Source: an uncultured Gemmatimonadaceae bacterium (lineage in GTDB: Bacteria > Gemmatimonadota > Gemmatimonadetes > Gemmatimonadales > Gemmatimonadaceae). From it: a DNA stretch of 64,000 nucleotides. Position 1 is the stretch's first letter. The number at the start of each line of letters is the position of its first letter. The notes under the pieces were generated by a model. That model did no database searches and had not been told where the DNA came from. It saw only the letters and a program-made list of their open reading frames with translations. Shown one piece after another: positions 5,147 through 26,452 of this stretch. The stretch spans positions 384,001 through 448,000 of the forward strand of contig CAWBOC010000006.1 of NCBI GenBank assembly GCA_963790305.1, written 5' to 3'. The translations under genes and the position numbers were made by a program.

Positions 5147-6621
5147 CGCGCGAGATCACCAGCGACACGACGAAGGTCGTTGAACATCGCCAGGGCGAAA
5201 ATGAGCGCGATCATTGCCAGCCCGAAGCGCATCATGTACTCGCGCGAACGCAGACTGAACGGCGATCCCTTGACCGCCTGCAAGAGGTTGATGAGGATCT
5301 GCCCGCCATCGAGAATGGGAATGGGAAGCAGGTTGAAGATGGCGACGTTGATGCTCAGGAACGCCGTCAGCTGAAGCAGCTGCGCGAATCCACCGGCGGC
5401 AGCCTCGCCGGACGCTCGTGCAATAGCGATCGGTCCACCCAGCTGATCGGTCGACAGGCGCCGGGTCACGAGACGATGGAGAACGTCGACGACCGAGCCC
5501 GCCATGTCCCACGTCGCTTCCCATCCCGACCCAATCGCCTCGCCCAGAGAGACCGGCTCACGTCGATTCTCGACACGATTGCCGACCCCAATCCGTCCGG
5601 TCAGGACCTCTCGGCCGTTGTCGTCGCGCTGACGAGCCGAGTCGGGAACCACCGTGACCGTGACGCGCTCCCCTCCCCGCATCACCTCGACCGGGAGTGG
5701 TCGGCCCGGCGACTGCCGAATCTGCTCGACGGCGGCGGACCAGCCGTCCACGGACTGCCCCCCAACGGCGACGAGGCTGTCTCCTGCACGTATGCCGGCC
5801 CGCGCCGCCGGTGAGCCTGCCTCCACGCGGTCGATCACCGCTGGAAGCTGCGGCGTCAGCATTGTGACGAGGTCGCGCCGCGCGACGGCGCTGTCACCAT
5901 CGAGGGGCAGCGCGACAATCCCCCGCGACGTGCGGATCACCGCCGAGTCCCCGTCCGCGCGCGCGAGACCCTCGAGAATGTCCCCCCACGTCTCGATCGC
6001 ACGATCGTCGACCGCTATGACCGTATCCCCACGCTGGAACCGGCTGGCGTAGGGACGTGCCCAGTCGGCGTCGGTCACCGCACCGATTACGCGAGTGGGA
6101 ATGATCGGGCGGCCATAGTATGCCGCGAGCGCACTGAGCACGAGGAAGCCCAGCACAATGTTCATGCTGACGCCCGCGACCATGATGAAGAGTCGCGCCA
6201 GAAGGCTCTTCGATTCGAAGAGACGATGCTCCGGCACCGGGATCGGCCCAAAGGGAGCGAGCGCGTTTGGATCCCAGTCGGCGGGGCGCTTCTCCTCCTC
6301 GATCACCCGTGCTCCGCTCCCGCCCACCGTCTCGGGAGCGACCGCGGGTTTCTCACCGCCCCCTTCGAGCGCCGCCATGGTCTCGTCTTCCTTCGAGGCC
6401 ATGCGAACGTACCCGCCTAACGGGATCGCGGCGAGGATGTATTCCGTCTCGCCCCAGCGCCGGCGCCACAGCGCTTTCCCGAACCCGATCGAGAATCGCG
6501 GCGCGTACACGCCCGTCAGCTTCGCGGCGATGAAGTGGCCGAGCTCGTGGACGAAGACGACGACCCCGAGCACGAACACGAACGCCAGGATTGTCCGGAA
6601 TGGATCGAACCAGTCTAGCAT
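5134..6621 (-). CDS. rseP: RIP metalloprotease RseP (M50, two PDZ domains)
   Basis: HELGH, PLGGYVRM and NLLPIPILDGG motifs; follows dxr. Confidence 0.96.
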   Translation of the reverse strand: MLDWFDPFRTILAFVFVLGVVVFVHELGHFIAAKLTGVYAPRFSIGFGKALWRRRWGETEYILAAIPLGGYVRMASKEDETMAALEGGGEKPAVAPETVGGSGARVIEEEKRPADWDPNALAPFGPIPVPEHRLFESKSLLARLFIMVAGVSMNIVLGFLVLSALAAYYGRPIIPTRVIGAVTDADWARPYASRFQRGDTVIAVDDRAIETWGDILEGLARADGDSAVIRTSRGIVALPLDGDSAVARRDLVTMLTPQLPAVIDRVEAGSPAARAGIRAGDSLVAVGGQSVDGWSAAVEQIRQSPGRPLPVEVMRGGERVTVTVVPDSARQRDDNGREVLTGRIGVGNRVENRREPVSLGEAIGSGWEATWDMAGSVVDVLHRLVTRRLSTDQLGGPIAIARASGEAAAGGFAQLLQLTAFLSINVAIFNLLPIPILDGGQILINLLQAVKGSPFSLRSREYMMRFGLAMIALIFALAMFNDLRRVAGDLARWIR

Positions 6622-7749
6622 GCGAACAGCTCTCTCACGTGACGTCGTGCAGCCGCATCGGCCTCCAGCAACGCGTCGCGAGAGTGCGACGCCGCCGTCC
6701 CTTCTGCCGCGAGCGCCGACTCGATCGCGCGCGGTATCTCTCCGAACTGTATACGTCCCTCCAGGAACAGCGACACTGCCTGCTCGTTGGCGGCATTGAA
6801 GACCGCTGGCGCTGCCCCGCCCGCTCGACCCGCCTGCACACCCATTCGAAGCGCCGGGAAATCCTCGTGCCGCACCCGCTCGAACGTGAGCGGCGAGAGC
6901 TCCACCGGATCGAACGGTGGTACACCGGTATCGGCGATTCGTCCCGGATGCGTCAAGGCGTAGAGCACCGGGAGCTCCATACTCGGAACCCCGAGCTGCG
7001 CCAGAACGCTCCCATCGACGAACTCCACGAACGAGTGCACTACACTCTGCGGATGTACCACCACCTCGATCCGATCATACGGGAGCCCAAACAGGAAGTG
7101 TGCCTCGATCACCTCGAGCGCCTTGTTGGCCAACGTCGCGCTATCAATGGTGATCTTCCGCCCCATGCGCCACGTCGGGTGGCGCAGCGCATCGGCCACT
7201 GTCGCGCGCTCGAGACGCTCGCGCGACCACCCGCGAAACGGACCGCCCGATGCCGTCAGCACCAGACGGCGAACGTCCGTACCAACGCGCCCGGTGAGAC
7301 ATTGCAAGAATGGCACTGTGCTCGCTGTCGACGGGGACGATTTCTCCCCCACCCCGCTGACAGGCGTCGGCAACGAGCGCACCAGCCATGACCAGCGTCT
7401 CCTTGTTCGCCAACGCCACACGCTTCCCGGCGGATAACGCCGCCAACGTCGCATCCAGCCCCGCCGCTCCGACCACGGCATTCAGCACGATCGAGGCGTC
7501 CTCGTGCATGGCCGCCTCGACGAGGCAGGACGGGCCATGACGCCATTCACGATGGTCCTCGGCGCCGTTCTGTACGATGCCCACGAACGATGGTCCAAAC
7601 TCGCGGGCCTGCTCCTGCAGCAGCGCCGCGTTGGAATGGGCCGTGAGCGCGGCGACGTAAAACGCGTCGGCGTGTCGGCCGAGGACGCGAAGCGCCGTCG
7701 TGCCGATCGAGCCAGTCGACCCAAGGACGGCCACGCCGCGGCGTGTCAC
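6615..7749 (-). CDS. dxr: 1-deoxy-D-xylulose-5-phosphate reductoisomerase, split by a +1 indel near 7306-7311
   Basis: GSTGSIG, LANKE and PVDSEHSAI in one frame; LQCL..LTASGGPFR..HPTWRMGRKITIDSATLANKALE in the next. GTG start overlaps the cdsA stop. Confidence 0.93.
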
Positions 7750-10705: not shown

Positions 10706-11311
10706 TCACTCCTCGCCCATCTGGAATCGAACGAAGCGGCGCACCTGCACGTTCTCGCCGAGCCGCGACGAGGCTTCCTTGACGAGGTCGCCGATCGTCT
10801 TCTTGTCCTCGCGGATCCACGGCTGCGAGAGCAGCGCCACCTGCTTGTAGTACGACTCCAGCTTCCCGTCGACGATCTTGGCAACGAGATGGTCGGGCTT
10901 GCCGCTGGCACGCACCTGCTCTTCGGCGATGCGGCGCTCACGATCCACCGCGTCGGCGGGGACGCCTTCCTTGTCGACGGAGAGCGGCGCGGCGCTCGCA
11001 ATGTGCATCGCGATTTCCCGCGCCAGCGTCTTGAAGTCGTCGGTTCGCGCGACGAAGTCCGTCTCGCAGTTGAGCTCGACCAGCACGCCGATCTTTCCCG
11101 GCGGATGGATGTAGCTCGTGATCACGCCCTCCGACGTCGTGCGGCCAGCGCGCTTCTCGGCCTTGGCGATTCCCTTCTTGCGGAGATATTCGACCGCCTT
11201 CTCCATGTCGCCGGCCGTCTCCTCCAGCGCCTTCTTGCACTCCATCATCCCCGCGCCGGTGCGGCGGCGGAGCTCCTGAACATCCTTCGCGGTAAATGTC
11301 ACAGTCGTCAT
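10706..11311 (-). CDS. tsf: Translation elongation factor Ts (short form, about 201 aa)
   Basis: [16 protein letters not shown] and [10 protein letters not shown]; start at MTTVTF. Confidence 0.98.
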
Positions 11312-11409
11312 CGTTATGTCTCCCTGGTACGTCAACGCCGCCGGCGAGTCACACCGGCGGCGCTGTAGTCTACTTCCAACGCGCGGGTGACACTACCCCG
11401 CCGCGCACG

Positions 11410-15223: not shown

Positions 15224-15724
15224 TTACGACAGCTCCACCAGAACCGCCCCCTTCTCCACCGCGGCTCCTGCCTGAACTCGTACCGCGCTCACCGTCCCCG
15301 CGCTCTGGGCCCGCAGCTCGTTTTCCATCTTCATCGCTTCCATCACGACGATAGGTGCTCCGGGCTGGACGGCATCGCCGACCTGCACGTTGACCCGCAC
15401 GATCATGCCCGGCATTGGGGCGACGAGGGGCGCCGGCCCGGCCGGCCGGGCACCATCGCTGGACAGATCCCGAATTGCGCGCGTGCGCTCATCGAGCGCT
15501 TCCACCTCATAGCGATGACCGTCGATCCACAGGGCATACTCGCCGCGACGTGTCCCGCGCTTCATAACGATGCGATGCACCTCGGTGCCGATCGTCAACA
15601 CCTGTACCGGGGTGCCCTCGACGTCGGCCAGGTGCGCGCGCGAGATTTTCTCACCGACGCGAATGCCCTCGTCTCCGGTGGTGACGTCCATGCGCTCCCC
15701 ATTGACCGTCACGACGTATTTCAC
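15224..15724 (-). CDS. Biotin carboxyl carrier protein of acyl-CoA carboxylase
   Basis: APMPG...VMEAMKMENE biotinylation motif; GTG start (VKYVVTVNG) overlaps the upstream stop. Confidence 0.95.
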   Translation of the reverse strand: MKYVVTVNGERMDVTTGDEGIRVGEKISRAHLADVEGTPVQVLTIGTEVHRIVMKRGTRRGEYALWIDGHRYEVEALDERTRAIRDLSSDGARPAGPAPLVAPMPGMIVRVNVQVGDAVQPGAPIVVMEAMKMENELRAQSAGTVSAVRVQAGAAVEKGAVLVELS

Positions 15725-16956
15725 GCCGCCTCCGGGACCAGCTCGCAGACGGTCTCGACATGTGCTGTTTGCGGAAACATGTCGAAGCTCTCGAGGGACG
15801 CGATGCGGTAGCTCGGGAGGCGTCCGACGTCGCGAGCGAGCGTCGCGGGATCGCAGCTGACATACACGATGGCGGCAGGCGTTGGGCGCACCGCTTCCAG
15901 GATCTCCGTGACACGCTTGTCGATGCCAGCGCGGGGGGGATTCAGGATTACGACGTCGGCGGGGAGCCCGTCTTCCAGGAGCTGCTCCACGCGTCCAGCG
16001 AGCACGCGGGACCCGGCAGGTAGCTGCGCGGCACTCCACGCCACGGCGTCGCGGTCGAGCTCGATCGCCGTCACGCGAACTCCCTGCGTCGCCAGCTCTC
16101 GCGCGGTGTGGCCCAGTCCCGCATACGCATCGATGGCGCTCAATGGATTGCGCGCCATCGCCAGCGCGATCACTCGCCGCCTCAACAGGACTGCGACAGC
16201 GGGATTGACCTGCGCGAAAGAGGCACCGGGCGCGCTCGCTGCCTGACGGGCGTGCACCCGTCGGCGCTCCTGTGCTTCCGGGATCCACCAGAGTGTGCCC
16301 AGACGCGGCACGGCGTCGAAGAATGCTCGGCTCGCCGGCCAATCGCGTCCACCTTCGATGGTCAGCGCGGCGGTGTTCTCATCGTCGAGGCGCAGCGCGC
16401 CGCGTAGCGCTTGCACCCGCGGCAGGTGCTCCGCCGCAGCAAGGACATCGCGCCATATGTCGAGCACGTCCTGATGCGTGATCGGACAATCCTGCAGGCG
16501 GAACACGCTGCGCGCATCGTCGAAGGGGTGCAGGCCGGCAATCCACTCCGCCCCACGACGACGCATCGCCAGGGTGAGCTTCCGCCGATAGCGCCACGGA
16601 GTCGGACTGGCCTGGACGACGGGGAGCTCGACCTCGCGCTGTCCGATGCGCTGCAGTGCGTCGCGCACGATCCGCGATTTTGCCTGGAGCTGCGCATCGT
16701 AGCCGAGATGCTGCAGCTGGCATCCGCCGCAGCGATCCATGACGAAATGCGCACACGACGGTTGAACCCGCTGGGACGAAGGCGTGCGCAGCTCGCGAAA
16801 CTCCGCGCGCGCGAATCGCCCTTTGTCCGGCATCTCCACCACACCGACGTCGCCGGGCGCGGAGCGCGGAACGAACACGACGCGTCCGTCAGCCCGGCCG
16901 ACACCGTCACCGCCGGCGGCAATGGAGTCGATCATCACCTCGGCTCGCACGATCAC
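15721..16956 (-). CDS. rlmD: TRAM-domain RNA m5U methyltransferase (RlmD/TrmA family)
   Basis: GGDGVG TRAM start, C..F...CGGC Fe-S motif, FAQVN, NPPRAG, YVSCDPATLARD and DMFPQTAHVE. Confidence 0.88.
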   Translation of the reverse strand: MIVRAEVMIDSIAAGGDGVGRADGRVVFVPRSAPGDVGVVEMPDKGRFARAEFRELRTPSSQRVQPSCAHFVMDRCGGCQLQHLGYDAQLQAKSRIVRDALQRIGQREVELPVVQASPTPWRYRRKLTLAMRRRGAEWIAGLHPFDDARSVFRLQDCPITHQDVLDIWRDVLAAAEHLPRVQALRGALRLDDENTAALTIEGGRDWPASRAFFDAVPRLGTLWWIPEAQERRRVHARQAASAPGASFAQVNPAVAVLLRRRVIALAMARNPLSAIDAYAGLGHTARELATQGVRVTAIELDRDAVAWSAAQLPAGSRVLAGRVEQLLEDGLPADVVILNPPRAGIDKRVTEILEAVRPTPAAIVYVSCDPATLARDVGRLPSYRIASLESFDMFPQTAHVETVCELVPEAA

Positions 16957-18488
16957 CGCCTCCGCAAGCCGTCTCGGCGCGCCGCGCGTAGCCACGCGTC
17001 CTCGTGAGGTATTGCGGATTGGGTGGGTGAGCCACCTGAGGGCGTGACCTTCAACATCGCCGGCGCTGCTCGGTCTCGCTCGGCAAGAAGCACCGCGGCG
17101 ATGGCGGCGATGACCGGTCCACCGGCCGGCGGCTGGGTTCGCGTGAGCGACTCGAGGCGTCGCTCCAGCCATTGAATCTCAATGTCGCCCCGGCGGAACT
17201 CCGCGTCCTCCATGACGCGAAGATGGAAATCCCTCGACGTCGCCACGCCATCGATGGTCAGCTCGAGCAGCGCACGGTGCATCCGCGCAATGGCCGCATC
17301 GCGCGTGGGGGCCCACACGATGAGCTTCGCGAGCATTGCATCGTAATGAAGCCCGATCTCGCTCCCGACGCCGATGCCTCCGTCCCATCGCACACCGGGG
17401 CCCCCTGGGACACGGAGGTACCCGATGCGACCGATCGAGGGGAGAAAGCCGTTGGCCGGATCTTCGCTCGTTATGCGACATTCGATGGCCCAGCCCTTCG
17501 GAACGATGTCCTCCTGACGAAAGGGCAGTCGCTCCCCGGCCGCGATTCGCAGCTGCCACTGCACGAGGTCGATTCCGGTGACGAGCTCGGTAACCGGGTG
17601 CTCCACCTGCAAGCGGGTGTTCATCTCGAGAAAGTAGAACTGACCCTCACGATCGAGCAAAAACTCGCACGTCCCGGCGTTCACGTAGCCGGCCGCGCTT
17701 GCGGCCGCGACCGCCGTCTCTCCCATGCGTCGCCGCAAATCTGGGGAAACGGCCACGCTCGGTGCTTCCTCCACCATTTTCTGATGACGACGCTGAATGG
17801 AGCACTCGCGCTCGCCGAGCGACAGCACCGTCCCGTGCTGGTCGGCGAGAATCTGAATCTCCACGTGTCGAGGGCCGGCAATGTACTTCTCGATGTACAC
17901 CGCGTCGTCGCCAAATGCGTTGCGCGCTTCGCGACGCGCCGCCTCGAGTGCCGAGGCGAGGTCGGCCTCGCGAGCGACGACGCGCATTCCCTTGCCTCCA
18001 CCGCCCGCCGACGCCTTCACCAGCACGGGATATCCGAGTGAGGACGCAACGCCAATCGCTTCGGCGGCGTCTCGTACCGCGTCCTTCGTCCCCGGAACGA
18101 TCGGGACCCCCGCCGCCGTCGCCAGTCGGCGTGCCGAGGTCTTGCTGCCCATGGCCGCGATCGCCTCCGCCGGCGGCCCCACGAAGACGATCCCCGCGTC
18201 GCGCACGGCGCGCGCGAACCACTCGCGTTCGGAAAGAAACCCGTAGCCAGGATGAATCGCTTCGGCGCCAGTCTGCCGGGCAGCGTCGATGATTCGCTCA
18301 CCGCGCAGGTAGCTCTCCGCGGACGGCGCCGGCCCGATGTGGACGGCCTCGTCGGCTTCTCGCACATGCGGCGCCATTGCGTCCGCATCACTGTAGACGG
18401 CAACGGTGGCGACGCCGAGCTCACGACAGGCGCGAATGACCCGGAGCGCGATCTCGCCGCGGTTCGCGATCAGGACTTTACTGAACAT
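16953..18488 (-). CDS. accC: Biotin carboxylase subunit of acetyl/propionyl-CoA carboxylase (AccC/PccA-like)
   Basis: KVLIANRGEIA, HPGYGFLSE, GGGGKGMR, RECSIQRRHQK and FLEMNTRLQVEHPVTE. Confidence 0.95.
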   Translation of the reverse strand: MFSKVLIANRGEIALRVIRACRELGVATVAVYSDADAMAPHVREADEAVHIGPAPSAESYLRGERIIDAARQTGAEAIHPGYGFLSEREWFARAVRDAGIVFVGPPAEAIAAMGSKTSARRLATAAGVPIVPGTKDAVRDAAEAIGVASSLGYPVLVKASAGGGGKGMRVVAREADLASALEAARREARNAFGDDAVYIEKYIAGPRHVEIQILADQHGTVLSLGERECSIQRRHQKMVEEAPSVAVSPDLRRRMGETAVAAASAAGYVNAGTCEFLLDREGQFYFLEMNTRLQVEHPVTELVTGIDLVQWQLRIAAGERLPFRQEDIVPKGWAIECRITSEDPANGFLPSIGRIGYLRVPGGPGVRWDGGIGVGSEIGLHYDAMLAKLIVWAPTRDAAIARMHRALLELTIDGVATSRDFHLRVMEDAEFRRGDIEIQWLERRLESLTRTQPPAGGPVIAAIAAVLLAERDRAAPAMLKVTPSGGSPTQSAIPHEDAWLRAARRDGLRRR

Positions 18489-18514
18489 GCATACTGAGGA
18501 GGGGTCGGGAGAGC

Positions 18515-18547
18515 GCAATGCGGAATGCGGAATGCGGAAGGGAATGC
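18515..18547. repeat. Heptamer tandem repeat (GGAATGC)n, single arm
   Basis: gcaatgc ggaatgc ggaatgc ggaag ggaatgc. Confidence 0.8.
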
Positions 18548-18557
18548 ACTCTCCTCA

Positions 18558-19055
18558 TCATCGCCTATCAACGGCGCCCAGGATCGTCTCCAGATCCGCG
18601 CGCTCGAATTGATTCGAGCCGACGAACATGAAGCGGATAGCACGCGTGAGGCCGTCGATCAGAAATGACGCGGGCCGCGCCATGTTCACGGCGTCGATGC
18701 CGATCGGATGCCAGACACCATAGCGCTTGATCACGGCGCGATCCTCATCACAGAGGATGGGAAACGGCAGCTGTGCGGAGCTCTTCGCCATACCCGCCGC
18801 AATGCCGGCGCACCGCTGCCCGAGAATCATTGCGACCGCGATGTCGCGCTCCCGAAGCTTGTCGTGACCTCCTCGCAGCTCACCGAGCTGCCCTCGACAG
18901 TTGGGTCACCACATCCCGCGATGAAAGACCAACAGAAGGCCACGTCGGTCTCGCAGCAGATCGGTGAGTGAGCGAGACTCGCCGGTCGCGGCATCGCGAA
19001 GCTGAAATTCAGGAGCGGCGTCGCCGAGGTGCAGCGTCGTACTCGGACGCGACAT
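18558..19055 (-). CDS. AhpC/TSA (peroxiredoxin-like) selenoprotein, 165 aa, in-frame UGA at codon 50
   Basis: ATG at 19055 (TGATG overlap with the pccB stop) reads [21 protein letters not shown]...LLLVFHRGMW-TGA-PNCRGQLGEL... and continues in frame into the tracked 18558..18830 ORF (LPFPILCDEDRAVIKRYGV...RPASFLID). Confidence 0.88.
18875..18891 (-). promoter_or_regulatory. Candidate bacterial SECIS hairpin
   Basis: 14 nt 3' of the UGA: GCAGCUC-GGU-GAGCUGC, a perfect 7-bp stem with a G/U apical loop. Confidence 0.7.
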
Positions 19056-20606
19056 CAGAGCGGGATGTTGCCGTGCTTTTTGGGCGGATTCTGATCGCGC
19101 TTCGCCCTGAGCGTGTCCAGCGCGTCGATGAGGCGCGGGCGCGTCTCGCGTGGATCGATGATGTCGTCGACGAATCCCCGGCCCGCCGCAATGTACGGGT
19201 GCGCGAACTTCGCGCGGTACTCTTCCATTCTCCGCTCCGTCTCACCCTCGGGATTGCTGCTCCCGGCGATCTCCTTTCGGTTCAGAATCTCCACCGCGCC
19301 CTTGGGGCCCATGACGGCAATCTCCGCCGTTGGCCACGCCACGTTGTAATCGCCTCGAATGTGCCTCGAGGACATGACGTCGTACGCCCCGCCGTAGGCC
19401 TTACGGGTAATGACCGTCAGCTTGGGAACGGTCGCCTCGCAATACGCGTAGAGCAGCTTGGCTCCATGTTTGATGATCCCGCCATGTTCCTGTGTCACAC
19501 CGGGGAGGAATCCCGGCACGTCCTCGAAGGTGAGCAGCGGGATGTTGAACGCGTCGCAGAAGCGAATGAATCGCGCGCCCTTGAGCGATGCGCTGATGTC
19601 GAGCACGCCGGCGAGCACCGCCGGCTGGTTGGCGACGATCCCGATGCTGTACCCTCCGAGGTGCGCGAATCCGCACAGGATGTTCTGCGCGTAGTCGCGA
19701 TGCACTTCGTAGAACTCGCCATCGTCGACGACGCGCCGAATGACCTCATGCATGTCATACGGCTTGTTCGCATGATCGGGAACGACGTCGAGCAACGTTT
19801 CGTCCCGTCGGTCGCGCGGATCGGTCCCGCGTCCGCGGGGCGGGTCGCTGAGGTTGTTCGACGGGACGAAGCGGAACAGGTCGCGGATCGCGGCGAGACA
19901 CGCCACCTCGGAATCATGAACGAAATGCGCGACACCGGAGACGCTGGCATGCGTATCGGCACCGCCGAGCTGCTCCATGGTGACGTCTTCATGCGTCACG
20001 GTCTTCACCACGTTCGGCCCGGTGACGAACATGTAGGACGTGCCGCGCACCATGTAGATGAAGTCGGTGATCGCGGGGGAATAGACCGCGCCCCCCGCGC
20101 ACGGGCCGAGGACCGCCGAGATCTGCGGGATGACCCCGGAGAACAGCGTGTTGCGCAGGAAGATGTCGGCGTAGCCGCCCAGGGACACTACCCCTTCCTG
20201 AATGCGCGCTCCACCGGAATCGTTGAGCCCGATGATCGGCGCACCATTTCGCGCCGCGAGATCCATCACTTTGCAGATCTTCTCGGCGTGGGTCTCGGAG
20301 AGCGACCCTCCAAAGACGGTGAAATCCTGAGAGAAAACGTAGACGAGGCGTCCGTCGATGCGGCCGTGGCCGGTGACGACGCCGTCGCCGTAGATGGGGC
20401 CTTCGTCCCCGTTGCGCACTGTCGGACCGCGACACCGCGAAGCGGTCGAGCTCGGTGAAGCTGCCTTCATCGAGGAGCACGTCGAGACGCTCACGCGCGG
20501 AGAGCTTCCCTTTCGCATGCTGCGCCTTGAGGCGTTCGGCGCCCCCGCCCAGCTCGGCTGCCGCGCGCCGGCGCTCGAGCAGCTCCAGCTTCTCTCGCAT
20601 CGTCAT
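19055..20606 (-). CDS. pccB: Acyl-CoA carboxylase carboxyltransferase beta subunit (PccB-like), indel near 20410-20430
   Basis: [13 protein letters not shown] in the first frame; [38 protein letters not shown] and RKAYGGAY in the second. Confidence 0.93.
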
Positions 20607-20660
20607 GGAGGGCGAAAGCTAGCGTGGCCAATTCGAGTTTGTGAGTAGCAGAGCGCTTTT

Positions 20661-20782
20661 GCGGGGGCCACGGAGAGCCTGAACCGCCGGATGACCCGAA
20701 TGACACGAATGGCTCCCCGAGCACAGGGAGCCATTCGTGTCATTCGTGTTACGCGGCAGTTCGGGCGGTCCGTGGCCCCTGC
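20661..20782. repeat. Long (about 122 bp) inverted repeat with internal 9-bp GAATGACAC units
   Basis: Arms of about 57 bp, an inner perfect 21-bp stem (cgaatgacacgaatggctccc / gggagccattcgtgtcattcg) and an 8-nt loop. Confidence 0.85.
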
Positions 20783-20791
20783 CACCCGGAA

Positions 20792-21577
20792 CTATCTGTT
20801 GAGTGTGTTATCCAGGAACGGCCGGTTGGTCGCCGTCGTCGACTTGACTGTGGTGTCCCCGCGGGCGCTGATCGAGTAGACGCTTCCGTCGAGAAGAGAC
20901 ATCGGCTCTCGTGACGGCGCTCGTCGTCAATCCGGCATAGCGCGCGCTCAGGTCATACACGCCCGTTCGGTACAGCCGTGAATGCACCTGCGCTCTTGTA
21001 GGCAACCACCCCGCCAATCGCGATCTCAGGCCCGGTCGTTCCCACGCGCACATACAGTGTCATCGGCCGCGAGTTCGAGATCGCGTTGACGAATCGGACG
21101 TGGGCGACGGCGTAGTCGAATTGCGGCGGGGAACGGATCTTCGACGATGAACGCCTCGACGGTCTTCGTGGTGGAGTTGTAGAATCCGCTCTGGTAGAAG
21201 GAGTAGTTCTTGCCGGCCTCGATCGTCGTCTGAACGCTCGAGATCGCGAGATCCTTGTCGGTGGTGGCCGAGATCTTGCCGGAGAACGTGTACTGGCCGG
21301 GTGCGACGGTCGCAGTACAGTCCGCCGGACCCAACGTTCGCCGTACGTCACTCCCGTCGTCGATTCCACGCCCGTGGCGGAGGTGATCGCCGTCATCTTC
21401 GTGTTGTCGGCGTAGAAATTCACTCCCGGTGCATTCACGCCGAAGTTGAAGAACTTGATACGCGCCTCGGGAGTCAAGCCCGTGATGCTCCTGAACGGCG
21501 TTCTTGTCGCACGAGGAGAGCGCGGCCGCACAGAGCAGCCCCGCGAGCACTCGATATCGCATCATGTCGGGATTCAT
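20792..21577 (-). CDS. DUF4397-like lipoprotein (frameshifted in this assembly)
   Basis: Lipobox LSSC; IKFFNFGVNAPGVNFYA and VRFVNAISNS beta-sandwich repeats spread across frames; ends ...NRPFLDNTLNR*. Confidence 0.7.
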
Positions 21578-23168: not shown

Positions 23169-26100
23169 TCAGAATCCCACCCGGAGGCCGAAGTTGAAGC
23201 CGCGCGGCATGGGGAAGTTGCCGAAGTCGATCCCGGCGCCCCCCGATCCTCCGACGGCGGCGCTATTGCCGTTCACGATCGGATCGAGCCCGGAGTAGTT
23301 GGTGATCAGCAAGAGATCCGTTGCCGGTGAGGAACACGCTCGCGTTCCTGCAGCAAGCGCTCTGGCAGGGCGTAGTTCACCGTCACGTCGCGAAGGCGGA
23401 ACCAGTTGATGTCCTTCTCGATGAAGAGCTCCTCGCTGATGGGCGTGTAGTAGTCGTCTGAACCGCCGGGAGTGACCACGATGTTGTTGCGGGTCGGGGT
23501 GGCGCTGTTCTCCTTCCCGTCGCGCAGGACGCCCTCGATCACGCGCGGCTCGTTGCGATCGAGCGTGCGCATGGTGAGACCGCTGGCGGTGAGGAAGTGC
23601 TCGGTGGCGTTGAAGACATCGCCGCCCTTCCGGAGGTCGATCAGGAAGCTGAGGGAAGCCCGTTTGTACCTGAGCGTATTCGTGACGCCCATGGTGAAGT
23701 CGGGCTGCCGATCGTAGCCCGCGTCGATGAACACGGTCGAGCGGAGCGGAAGGCCCGATGTCGGATCGATGAGGAGCTTCCCCTCGTTGTTGCGCAGGTA
23801 GAAAAGGCCGGTGAGCGAGCGCGTCGAAAGACCCGGTGCGGTGCCGTTGCGCACGTTGCCGAAAAGCCACGTATCGGAGACGTAGGACTCCGGCAATGCA
23901 TTGGGCAGCGCCAGGACTTTCCCGCGCGACCGGTCGAAGTTGGCCAACACATCCCACGAGAAGCTGCCGCGCAGTGACCGGCGTCCCGCGCAGCGTGATT
24001 TCCAGACCCTCGTTTCTCGTGACGGCGCCGTTGAGGTTGAAGAGGATGAAGCCGGTCGCGTAGCTGCCGCGGATGTCGTTGACGATCTGGTCCTTGGTCT
24101 GCTTGCGGTACACGGTCGCGTCGATGCCGAGCCGGTCGTTCAGGAAGCCGAGCTCGGTGCCGAACTCGTACGATCTGCGCGAACTCCGGCTTGAGGCCGA
24201 GGTTCGGTCCCGTGAAGCCGTAGCCATAGCCGCCAAAGGCGGTCGACTTGAACTCGAGCGACGGTCGGTAGGCATAGGGACGCGCGTCCTTGCCGACCTC
24301 GGCGTAGGCGGCCCTGAGCTTGCCGGTCATGAATCGACCGATACTGCGGAAACGCGTCGGAGAAGATGAAGCTCGTCGAGACGCGACGGATAGAAGAACG
24401 AGTTGCGCGCCGATCGGGAATCGTCGAGGTCCAGTCGTTCCGGCCGGTGACGGTCACGTACAGGTACTTGCTTGTAAGTCGACGCGTCGCGCTGCCGAAG
24501 AGGCTGAGCGAGGCGCCGTTGCTGAGATGGTCGTCCGATTCGAACCGCAGGTTCGTGTTGTTGACCGAGACGAAGTTCGGCTCGAGGAAGTCCTGCCCCT
24601 TGAGCGCATCCGTCGTCGACTTGATGTCGGAGATCGCGTTGCCGACAAGGCCGCTGACCGGCAATGTCGCTCGTGAGTGCGCGGCTGTTGATGTTGAGCA
24701 GCGTCTGTGCGTTGATGTTGCGCGTGATGTCGTTCGCCACGTCGAGAATGCCGTTGACGGCGATTCCCAGCGCGCTCTCCGGGCTGCGCAGGATCTGGTT
24801 CTGGTTCGTGTAGCGTCGGTGCCAATGTTGGTCTTGATGCTGCCCCACGAGAACGGCGTCAACGTGAGGCCGAGGTTCGTCATGATCCGGTTGTTCTGCG
24901 AGTTGACTGGTTCTTCTCGACGTTGAAGTACGGGTTGTCGACTTCGGAGGCCGCGGCCAGAGTCGTGAGGCGGCGCCTGGTGCCTGCCGGCGTCAGGTAG
25001 TCCTTCGCGTTGTCGGTCTGCTGGCCACACCAGCAGCCCGAGCAGCGGACCGCCCGCGCCCTTGTACGGTTGATCGTTGTCGGCGTAGGTGTAGCCCATC
25101 GACAGGTCGGCGTTCAGCCAGTTGGTTGACCTGCGCCTGCGAAGCTCCCGTCAGGTTGATCCGGTCGTAGTTCGAGTTCGGAATGACCCCTTCCTGATTG
25201 GTGAGCGAGGTGGCCAGGCGGTAGTTGATCCGGTTGTCGGCGGCGGCACCGCTGAACGAGAGGTTGTGCTTCTGCGTCAACGCCGTCTGGAAGAAGCCAT
25301 CGATGTTATCGTAGAAACTGCGTGCCCGGTGCGTACGGCGCGCCGAAGTAGAGGAACGTGGTGCTGCCGACCGCAGCGTCGGTCCGTAGACCCGCTGGAT
25401 CTCCGGCCGGGCATTGGTCCTCTCGAGCCGGAAGCTGTTGCTGTACTCGAGCCCGCCCACCCCCGACTTGCCGCGCTTGGTCGTGATGACGATGGCGCCG
25501 TTCGCGGCATCGATTCCGTACAGGGCAGACGCCTCGGGGCCCTTCAGCACCGACGAGACTCTCGATGTCTTCGGGGTTGATGTCGGCGGCGCGATTCGTG
25601 AAGTCGACGCCGCGATTGCTGAACGCCGTCGCCGACCCGGCGCGTCCGAGGCAAGGACGCCGGTGTTGAGCGTCTTGTTGTCCATCGGCAGCCCGTCGAT
25701 GATCATCAGCGGCTGGTTGCTGCTGCTGATCGAGCTGATGCCTCTGATGGTGATCGACGACGACGCGCCGGGAACGCCCGAGCTGCTCGTCACCTCGACG
25801 CCGGCGACTCGCCCCTGCAGCGCGTTGACGAAGTTCTCTCGCTGCGTCTGAGCGATATCGGAGCCTTGCACCGTCTGCTGAGCGGTTCCCAAGCGCCCGT
25901 TGCTCCATGGTCTGGCCTAACGCCGTGACCACGACCTCGTCGAGCTGCGGTCGCGACCCGGCGAAGCGCAACGTTGATCACGTCGTCCGCCCCGACCGTG
26001 CGCTCCTCGGGCGCGTTGCCGATGAGCCGGAACTGGAGCACCTGGCCCTGAGCGACGCGAAGCGAATAGTTGCCTTCGTTGTTGCTCGCCGTACCGGTGA

Positions 26101-26245
26101 TGGTTCCCTTGATGACGACCGATACTCCGGCCAGAGGATCCCCCTGCTCGCTGGTGACCCTGCCGGTGACTGTCTTGACCTGTGCAACCGCTTGAGCGGT
26201 CAACAGGAACAGTCCCATGAGCACCATGACGAATTTTGTTTTCAT
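23169..26245 (-). CDS. SusC/RagA family TonB-linked outer membrane protein (many frameshifts in this assembly)
   Basis: Signal peptide, VTGRVTS..G.PL.GVSV domain, DEVVVTALG, LQGRVAGV, ITIRG, PLMIIDG, DINPEDIES, VLKGP..ALYG..AANGAIVITTK; C-terminal FPMPRGFNFGLRVGF. Confidence 0.9.
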
Positions 26246-26452
26246 AACGAGGTGTACCGGGTGTTGGAGGACAGCGAGGAGAGCTCCGGGCGCATGCACG
26301 CCAAGCGCACACGACGAGTGCACGCGTTTCGATATCCGAGGGCGAGCGCGGGGCCCAGCGGACACAGGGGACGACCGCGATTAGTGACTGCGGTCACCAA
26401 GTTGTGAAGCCGCGCTATATTAGCGCTCGGACCCCGAGATGCAAGGGTTTTG

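Follow-up and report, generated by a model that had tools for sequence, protein, structure and literature searches.

Peroxiredoxin (Prx)-like proteins with a UxxC motif, in which U is selenocysteine (Sec), form one of the described classes of bacterial selenoprotein. Members have been described among the selenoproteins of the Sargasso Sea (PMC1088965), the family of Prx-like thiol:disulfide oxidoreductases has been reported as abundant in Global Ocean Sampling (GOS) data (PMC2398784), and Table 1 of a 2026 review gives it, under PF00578 and with UxxC as its motif, as a selenoprotein family ‘predicted with high confidence’ (PMC13188914). Here a gene of this kind is described from an uncultured Gemmatimonadaceae bacterium, in a 64-kb stretch of contig CAWBOC010000006.1 (positions 384,001 to 448,000) that is referred to below, at its full length, as the window. 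The gene, here called prx-like, is located on the minus strand and is flanked on that same strand by pccB and accC, which encode components of a biotin-dependent acyl-CoA carboxylase. Analysis of the sequence has confirmed it as a predicted selenoprotein gene of known class, a Prx-like UxxC oxidoreductase, that had been missed by annotation. It is very probable that the frame from 19055 to 18558 is one gene for a 165-residue cytoplasmic UxxC selenoprotein, in which the UGA at codon 50 is read as Sec by means of a hairpin that follows it. Both the Gemmatimonadaceae lineage and the position between pccB and accC appear to be new for such a selenoprotein: a search of the literature found no report of selenoproteins in Gemmatimonadota, and neither ‘Gemmatimon’ nor ‘carboxylase’ is mentioned in the 2026 review (PMC13188914).

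In common with the described Prx-like UxxC selenoproteins, the product of the prx-like gene has an AhpC/TSA domain, UxxC in place of TxxU, and homologues with Cys at the Sec position, and its gene has a stem-loop right after the UGA with a G in a small apical loop. It differs from the published class in its Gemmatimonadaceae host, in its FHRGMW-U-PNC motif and in its fixed position between pccB and accC. The Sec-peroxiredoxins (TxxU) share the fold and the Pfam family, and Cys53 of the window protein aligns with their peroxidatic residue; in those proteins, however, it is the Sec that is peroxidatic, within PxxxTxxU, whereas in the window protein Sec takes the place of the Thr, three residues before, and Arg that of the Pro. 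SelL is similar in its Prx-like fold and its dithiol/diselenol-type motif, SelL-type proteins being described as having UxxU in a Prx-like 2 context (PMC2398784). The best NCBIfam match of the window protein is to a SelL-related redox protein (NF040769), but it covers residues 13-113 only and reaches 47.5 bits, so far under the cut-off of 120 that membership in that family was ruled out. Proteins of the TlpA/ResA/CcmG type (W-C-x-x-C) share with the window protein a W-[C/U]-x-x-C centre where the first long helix begins, and ResA is found among its sequence matches, with TlpA-type matches being weak (E 1e-4 to 1e-6). These proteins are exported or membrane-anchored and carry an export signal, whereas the window protein begins directly with the fold and has no N-terminal extension.

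The features of the prx-like gene are as follows.

18558 to 19055, minus strand: predicted selenoprotein gene prx-like, 165 codons followed by a TGA stop (18560-18558), with its ATG at 19055-19053
18906 to 18908, minus strand: in-frame TGA at codon 50, candidate Sec codon, opening the U-P-N-C redox motif
18875 to 18891, minus strand: SECIS-like hairpin (SECIS, selenocysteine insertion sequence) GCAGCUC-GGU-GAGCUGC, with its apical loop beginning 21 nt past the UGA

The TGA at 18908-18906 is the sole internal stop of the 165-codon frame, and in translation it falls within LLLVFHRGMW-stop-PNCRGQLGEL. A standard list of open reading frames (ORFs) gives just one piece of the gene, a 90-aa tail at 18558..18830. 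The full frame begins at a TGATG junction, in which the prx-like ATG and the pccB stop (TGA, 19057-19055) have their A in common; as pccB and the prx-like gene both terminate in TGA, this codon is not globally reassigned. The Pfam domain AhpC-TSA is matched by residues 11-134, across the TGA (E=2.4e-20; 73.2 bits against a cut-off of 26), and Redoxin by residues 11-158 of the read-through protein (E=4.6e-12). A sequence-only reading of this DNA had pointed out the start at 19055, the TGATG coupling to the pccB stop, the 90-aa ORF tail, an intact AhpC/TSA fold across a single TGA at the first Cys position of VFHRGMW-U-PNC, and a perfect 7-bp hairpin with a GGU loop 14 nt past that TGA, and each of these observations holds. 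Its proposal that the TGA encodes Sec is upheld by the pairing of Sec with Cys among homologues, by a hairpin specific to the TGA forms, by the suppression of synonymous change over that hairpin, by coding evolution upstream of the TGA and by a gene order that has been kept.

Homologues were collected by a single scan of a collection of species-representative genomes, which returned 55 loci; by record title, 49 are from Gemmatimonad-named organisms, one is from Melainabacteria, four are from Acidobacteriota and one is from Rokuibacteriota. Aligned codon 50 is TGA in 37 of these loci and TGC or TGT in the other 18. A motif search gave 36 TGA, 11 TGC and 6 TGT, and the two loci that it missed carry TGA (L055) and TGT (L053). 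The TGA occurs in three phyla, and the closest relative, a metagenome-assembled genome of Gemmatimonadaceae (L001), has a Prx 88% identical and a PccB 96% identical to those of the window. At the protein level, a word-indexed search with the read-through protein found 74 matches. All 43 of those at >=71% identity are 90-106 aa long and correspond to the C-terminal half only; the 10 close full-length matches (160-168 aa; 53-63% identity) have Cys at codon 50 in nine cases and Ser in one. An exhaustive HMMER search extended this to 2183 proteins at E<=1e-3, of which 148 were at E<=1e-10, and these include many C-terminal pieces of ~100 aa as well as a 49-aa piece (P0116) whose last residues are FHRGMW. 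Such a mixture of heads, tails and full-length Cys forms is what results when gene callers process selenoprotein genes, and the finding that all 43 of the closer matches are tails implies that a whole clade of soil Gemmatimonadaceae proteins has been mis-annotated and its use of Sec left unseen.

The wider family has the motif F-x-R-G-x-W-C-P-x-C in common, and F44, R46, G47, C/U50 and C53 are invariant among 51 family members. Codon-position divergence was calculated for 31 TGA forms from Gemmatimonadota. Upstream of the TGA, the 49 codons are free of stops and diverge by 0.27, 0.21 and 0.51 at positions 1, 2 and 3, respectively. The C-terminal half, a lack of conservation in which had been named by the sequence-only reading as grounds for abandoning the idea, likewise diverges in the manner of coding sequence (0.41, 0.37 and 0.54) and contains no other stops. 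This pattern of substitution indicates that the gene is under purifying selection both before and after the TGA.

In the published model of the bacterial SECIS element (Fig. 2 legend, PMC13188914), the loop is 3-9 nt, the upper stem is 4-16 bp with a G in the first two loop positions, the distance from the UGA to the loop is 16-37 nt, and the minimum free energy is <=-7.5 kcal/mol. In the window, the TGA is followed by 14 nt (18905-18892), an arm GCAGCTC (18891-18885), a loop GGT (18884-18882) and an arm GAGCTGC (18881-18875). With its 3-nt loop, 7-bp stem, GG in the loop, 21-nt distance and energy of -10.1 kcal/mol, the hairpin at 18891-18875 falls within every one of the published ranges. 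The hairpin was then compared across 37 TGA forms, namely that of the window and those of 36 TGA loci (L055 being handled separately), and 17 Cys forms. In 36/37 TGA forms, but in 0/17 Cys forms, all seven base pairs of the stem form at an unchanged register and enclose a GGN loop; the loop is GGG in 22, GGU in 12 and GGC in two of those 36, and the mean energy is -9.7 kcal/mol in the TGA forms against -4.1 in the Cys forms. The exception, L051 from Rokuibacteriota, has another hairpin, CCCGG-GUGG-CCGGG, 27 nt past the UGA, and in L055 a different, weak stem-loop is predicted. In the alignment of 37 rows, pairing extends to 92.7% of cells, against 24-57% in slid controls. Changes on both sides were seen in four of the nine pairs tested, all four within the 7-bp core, including G:C to C:G in L021, L024 and Acidobacteriota and C:G to U:A in Acidobacteriota. 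The covariation score of the hairpin was reached by none of 500 shuffles, and RNAalifold finds the identical helix. Rfam has no family that matches the hairpin at the gathering threshold, and at E up to 10 the segment 18780-18960 gave three chance-level matches, with no general bacterial SECIS family among them.

The nucleotide sequence beneath the hairpin also behaves differently in the two groups. Within the 3' arm, Leu is encoded by CTG in 36/37 TGA forms and by CTC in 15/17 Cys forms. Third-position divergence in the TGA forms drops to 0.19 over the hairpin, against 0.51-0.54 in its flanks, whereas in the Cys forms it is 0.395 over the hairpin and 0.385-0.405 in the flanks.

A maximum-likelihood tree was built from 51 rows, leaving out L046 (partial), L047 and L054 (frameshifted), L053 and L055. 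On this tree, Sec is carried by the group from Acidobacteriota and Rokuibacteriota and by most Gemmatimonadaceae, and the Cys forms make up one nested, well-supported clade of 15 together with L010, such that one or two changes account for the pattern. The simplest reading is that Sec is ancestral in the subfamily and that Cys was derived once or twice within Gemmatimonadota, although this is not proven because the root of the tree is a midpoint root only. The sister clades with Sec and with Cys amount to a natural experiment on the reasons for retaining or replacing Sec.

A model of the protein was made with AlphaFold from a 51-sequence alignment (pLDDT 93.9, pTM 0.90) and has a Prx fold, in which residue 50 just precedes a helix formed by residues 51-69. 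In structure it comes closest to PrxQ/BCP, Bcp4 and AhpE (TM-scores 0.76-0.85), and the best solved relatives by sequence are BCP (1.5e-6), AhpC and ResA. When the window protein is aligned with peroxiredoxins, Cys53 is matched with the peroxidatic Cys, Arg46 with the Pro of PxxxT/SxxC and Sec50 with the Thr/Ser of that motif, which itself is not present in the window protein. The position of the catalytic Arg of peroxiredoxins is occupied by Arg127 in the window protein and by His in 22/30 TGA forms and 16/16 Cys forms (the motif went unmatched in 8 further rows); Arg or His at this position showed no association with Sec or Cys at codon 50. The absence of PxxxT/SxxC, along with the His at the Arg position in most orthologues, points to a protein that combines the Prx fold with a W-U-x-x-C centre of the thioredoxin/TlpA type rather than to a canonical peroxidase, and with a thioredoxin-like UxxC rather than PxxxTxxC the gene fits the Prx-like thiol:disulfide oxidoreductase class of selenoproteins. 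The label ‘UxxC peroxiredoxin-like’ that the gene had first been given thus stands as regards the Prx fold and the UxxC motif; it falls if taken to mean a true peroxiredoxin, as the Pro and Thr of PxxxTxxC are absent.

In the mechanism proposed here, UGA-50 would be decoded as Sec, with the hairpin at 18891-18875 acting as the bacterial SECIS through which SelB, together with Sec-tRNA(Sec), is brought to the ribosome. Sec50, at the N-terminus of helix 51-69, would be the attacking nucleophile and Cys53 would resolve it through a selenenylsulfide; these catalytic roles of U50 and C53 are inferred. The product would function as a thiol-disulfide (or sulfenate/peroxide) reductase and be recycled by a cellular thiol system, and its gene would be expressed in one operon, between pccB and accC, with its start coupled to the pccB stop. 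The relevant features of the neighbourhood are the following.

19055 to 20606, minus strand: pccB, carboxyltransferase (beta) of propionyl-/acyl-CoA carboxylase, matching Pfam Carboxyl_trans with 598 bits
18489 to 18557, minus strand: prx-accC spacer of 69 nt, with a short CATTCCG tandem and inverted repeat
16953 to 18488, minus strand: accC, biotin carboxylase of 511 aa, matching NCBIfam TIGR00514 with 636.2 bits against a cut-off of 626.5

The best solved-structure match of PccB is the beta chain of propionyl-CoA carboxylase (PCC; 7e-184). No biotinyl (biotin carboxyl carrier protein, BCCP) domain was found in either pccB or accC; the AccC C-terminal tail of ~68 aa (16953-17160) has no Pfam match, and as AccC lacks a biotinyl domain, the gene for the biotin carrier protein must be located elsewhere. 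Of 50 loci of the Gemmatimonadota-type context, 47 have both neighbours in the order pccB-prx-accC, and the other three end at a contig edge; this order is found in 0/5 loci from Acidobacteriota and Rokuibacteriota. The synteny is therefore specific to Gemmatimonadota and is not a family-wide property. In two of the Acidobacteriota loci, L048 (5264-6450) and L052 (120-2225), the Sec homologue is directly downstream of moeA, which encodes a molybdopterin molybdenumtransferase, and there are no carboxylase genes nearby. Within the Gemmatimonadota arrangement, 48/48 evaluable loci have an ATG at a distance of exactly 49 codons upstream of the Sec/Cys codon, set in T(G/A)ATG on the pccB stop, and this overlap of the prx-like start with the pccB stop suggests that the two genes are translationally coupled. 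At the other end, the prx stop overlaps accC by 11 nt in 14/17 Cys forms, whereas the TGA forms have junctions of anything between -19 and +226 nt, with an overlap in 6/31, five by 11 nt and the frameshifted L047 by 19 nt. As a sign that accC has become uncoupled in the Sec forms, this difference in spacer length is suggestive at most, because the Sec and Cys groups are clades.

A number of findings weigh against the decoding of UGA-50 as Sec. The genes selA, selB, selD and that for tRNA-Sec were not found within the 64-kb window: an NCBIfam scan of its 51 ORFs returned no sel genes, and ARAGORN detected no tRNA-Sec either there or in the 55 fetched loci. In a 2016 survey (PMC5029168), the sole Gemmatimonadetes genome included, that of Gemmatimonas aurantiaca T-27, came out negative both for SelD and for the Sec trait. 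The 62-nt fold gave z=-0.17 against shuffles, meaning that the hairpin of this single sequence is no better than chance, and 145 of the 1611 TGA triplets in the window (9%) precede a hairpin of >=7 bp that fits a loose bacterial SECIS definition. The complementarity also derives in part from the codons for Q-L-x-E-L, and a 5-bp remnant is present in the Cys forms; in addition, many of the TGA forms are closely related, so that the counts are not of independent events, and the window assembly has indel errors. As the hairpin of a single sequence is at chance level, the case depends on the domain match across the TGA and on the comparative data, and despite the codon-driven complementarity the TGA and Cys groups are separated by the choice of Leu codon and by the third-position suppression. 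That the TGA is instead a true stop, giving a 49-aa peptide and a re-initiated 90-aa C-terminal protein from an internal ATG, or marking a decaying pseudogene, is highly improbable. Gene callers do annotate both the 90-aa tail and the 49-aa head, and the missing Sec machinery of the window would agree with such a stop, but neither piece makes up a whole fold, both the Pfam domain and a confident model extend across the TGA, purifying selection acts on both halves in 31 genomes with no further stop, and codon 50 is Cys in 18 orthologues, while the TGA is kept in three phyla and the hairpin occurs only alongside it. An error in base calling, or decoding of the UGA by some ordinary tRNA that would place Trp, Cys or Gly there without selenium, is scarcely credible: several assembly errors in the window could be cited in favour of the former, but they are indels and not substitutions and the TGA recurs in 37 independent assemblies, the latter is opposed by the use of TGA as the terminator of both pccB and prx, and neither would explain a hairpin of the SECIS model that is kept only beside TGA. 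Together, the coding character of the upstream half, a TGA codon that is not reassigned and its recurrence in independent assemblies exclude a base-call error and a pseudogene and make the two-product reading very unlikely.

If UGA-50 is indeed read as Sec, the function of the product may also be viewed in other ways. It is unlikely to be a genuine thiol peroxidase, that is, a Sec-peroxiredoxin that reduces H2O2 or organic hydroperoxides. Its fold and its best structural and sequence matches (PrxQ/BCP, AhpE, AhpC) are those of peroxiredoxins, and its Cys53 and Arg127 align with the peroxidatic Cys and the catalytic Arg, but PxxxT/SxxC is absent, with Arg46 for Pro and Sec50 for Thr, the Arg position is mostly His where the motif could be found, and known Sec-peroxiredoxins have TxxU and not UxxC (Table 1, PMC13188914; PMC1088965). 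A rather better prospect, though still less likely than not, is that the selenoprotein belongs with the carboxylase as its dedicated partner, a redox accessory subunit or regulator that would reduce a disulfide in PccB or AccC or protect the enzyme. This would extend and not replace the reading as a Sec-decoded UxxC oxidoreductase, and would make the carboxylation of propionyl-CoA adjustable by the supply of selenium or by redox state; that selenium or redox state may be linked to acyl-CoA carboxylation had been put forward in the sequence-only reading. It is favoured by the presence of prx between pccB and accC wherever the contigs allow, by the overlap of its start with the pccB stop in all evaluable loci and by the 11-nt overlaps with accC in most Cys forms and some TGA forms. 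Gemmatimonadota PccB (19055-20404 in the window) has two invariant Cys, in place of which Val/Thr and Ala/Gly stand in the three best-matching PCC beta chains of solved structure, and from the sequence these lineage-specific residues are a possible redox pair. There is also a precedent in the carboxyltransferase of the pea plastid acetyl-CoA carboxylase (ACCase), which is activated by thioredoxin via an inter-subunit disulfide (PMC8375268). On the other side, the gene neighbourhood is the sole evidence for such a partnership, and the Sec homologues of Acidobacteriota and Rokuibacteriota are located elsewhere, two of them after moeA, so a tie to carboxylases is not a feature of the family as a whole. 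The plastid system offers an analogy for a possible function, in that a thioredoxin-fold dithiol protein acts there on a biotin-dependent carboxylase; unlike the arrangement described here, it involves a general thioredoxin that acts in trans, and no carboxylase-linked redoxin gene is described in the available part of that report (PMC8375268).

In position, the prx-like gene, which is small, follows the carboxyltransferase gene and appears coupled to it, resembles the genes for the epsilon subunits of acyl-CoA carboxylases, a resemblance that we take to be one of position only, with no relation of sequence or fold. The actinobacterial epsilon subunits are small and are encoded just downstream of the beta-subunit gene, and they are not redox proteins.

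The most far-reaching interpretation, which is speculative and more likely wrong than right by a wide measure, is that the Prx-like seleno/thiol protein is a built-in redox module of the Gemmatimonadota propionyl-CoA carboxylase: it would be made in step with PccB by way of the stop/start overlap and would reduce or guard the lineage-specific PccB cysteines, with its dose, and perhaps that of AccC too, being set in the species with Sec by the efficiency of UGA decoding and hence by selenium supply. The efficiency of Sec recoding in E. coli has been put at 30-40% (PMC4513850), which makes reduced translation past the UGA plausible, and failed read-through could have a polar effect on accC, as the sequence-only reading had suggested. 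If this interpretation were true, the locus would encode a selenium-gated acyl-CoA carboxylase and would be the first documented use of Sec in the phylum. Sec decoding in these genomes would widen its known taxonomic range, given that the Gemmatimonadetes genome of the 2016 survey was scored without the Sec trait. A redoxin that is fixed between carboxylase subunit genes in ~50 genomes is also an unusual hint of thiol/selenol control of a bacterial biotin carboxylase, as in the plastid ACCase of plants.

The spacer between the prx-like gene and accC (18489-18557) contains CATTCCG repeated three to four times. In the closest relatives (L001-L005), the spacers are 114-226 nt long and are full of GAGGAAC-like direct and inverted repeats. 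The predicted fold of the window spacer is not significant (z=-0.31), and a scan for promoters and terminators over 16800-21000 found no promoter-like sequences and six terminator-like sequences, against 2.0 expected, none of which is in the spacer. An rlmD-like methyltransferase ORF (15721-17172), as called, overlaps the accC tail.

Several observations concern the quality of the assembly. In pccB, there is one extra nucleotide near 20416 when compared with L001 and L002, which puts the first ~64 codons (from the ATG at 20606) in a different frame from the rest; this split is probably an assembly indel rather than the mark of a pseudogene. Elsewhere on the minus strand, a gene for a SusC/RagA-type receptor (23169-26365) is broken into at least three ORFs, dxr (6615-7481) leaves the first ~154 profile positions uncovered, and tsf (10706-11335) covers its profile only in part; the split receptor gene and the two partial genes point to several indel errors in the assembly. 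Other read-through ORFs in the window were sought by a mechanical scan, which returned 365 candidates and was dropped as uninformative because the genome is GC-rich and has TGA as the common stop. ARAGORN also called a 92-nt tRNA-Val(GAC) at 7200-7291 on the minus strand, inside the dxr frame, that Rfam does not see; the segment was considered as a tRNA-Sec and rejected, being very likely a false positive in view of its location inside dxr and the lack of a match in Rfam. Finally, locus L054, the record of which is labelled Candidatus Melainabacteria, has the pccB-prx-accC arrangement of Gemmatimonadota with several frameshifts and a PccB that is 76-83% identical to that of the window, and the Melainabacteria label of this bin may be wrong.

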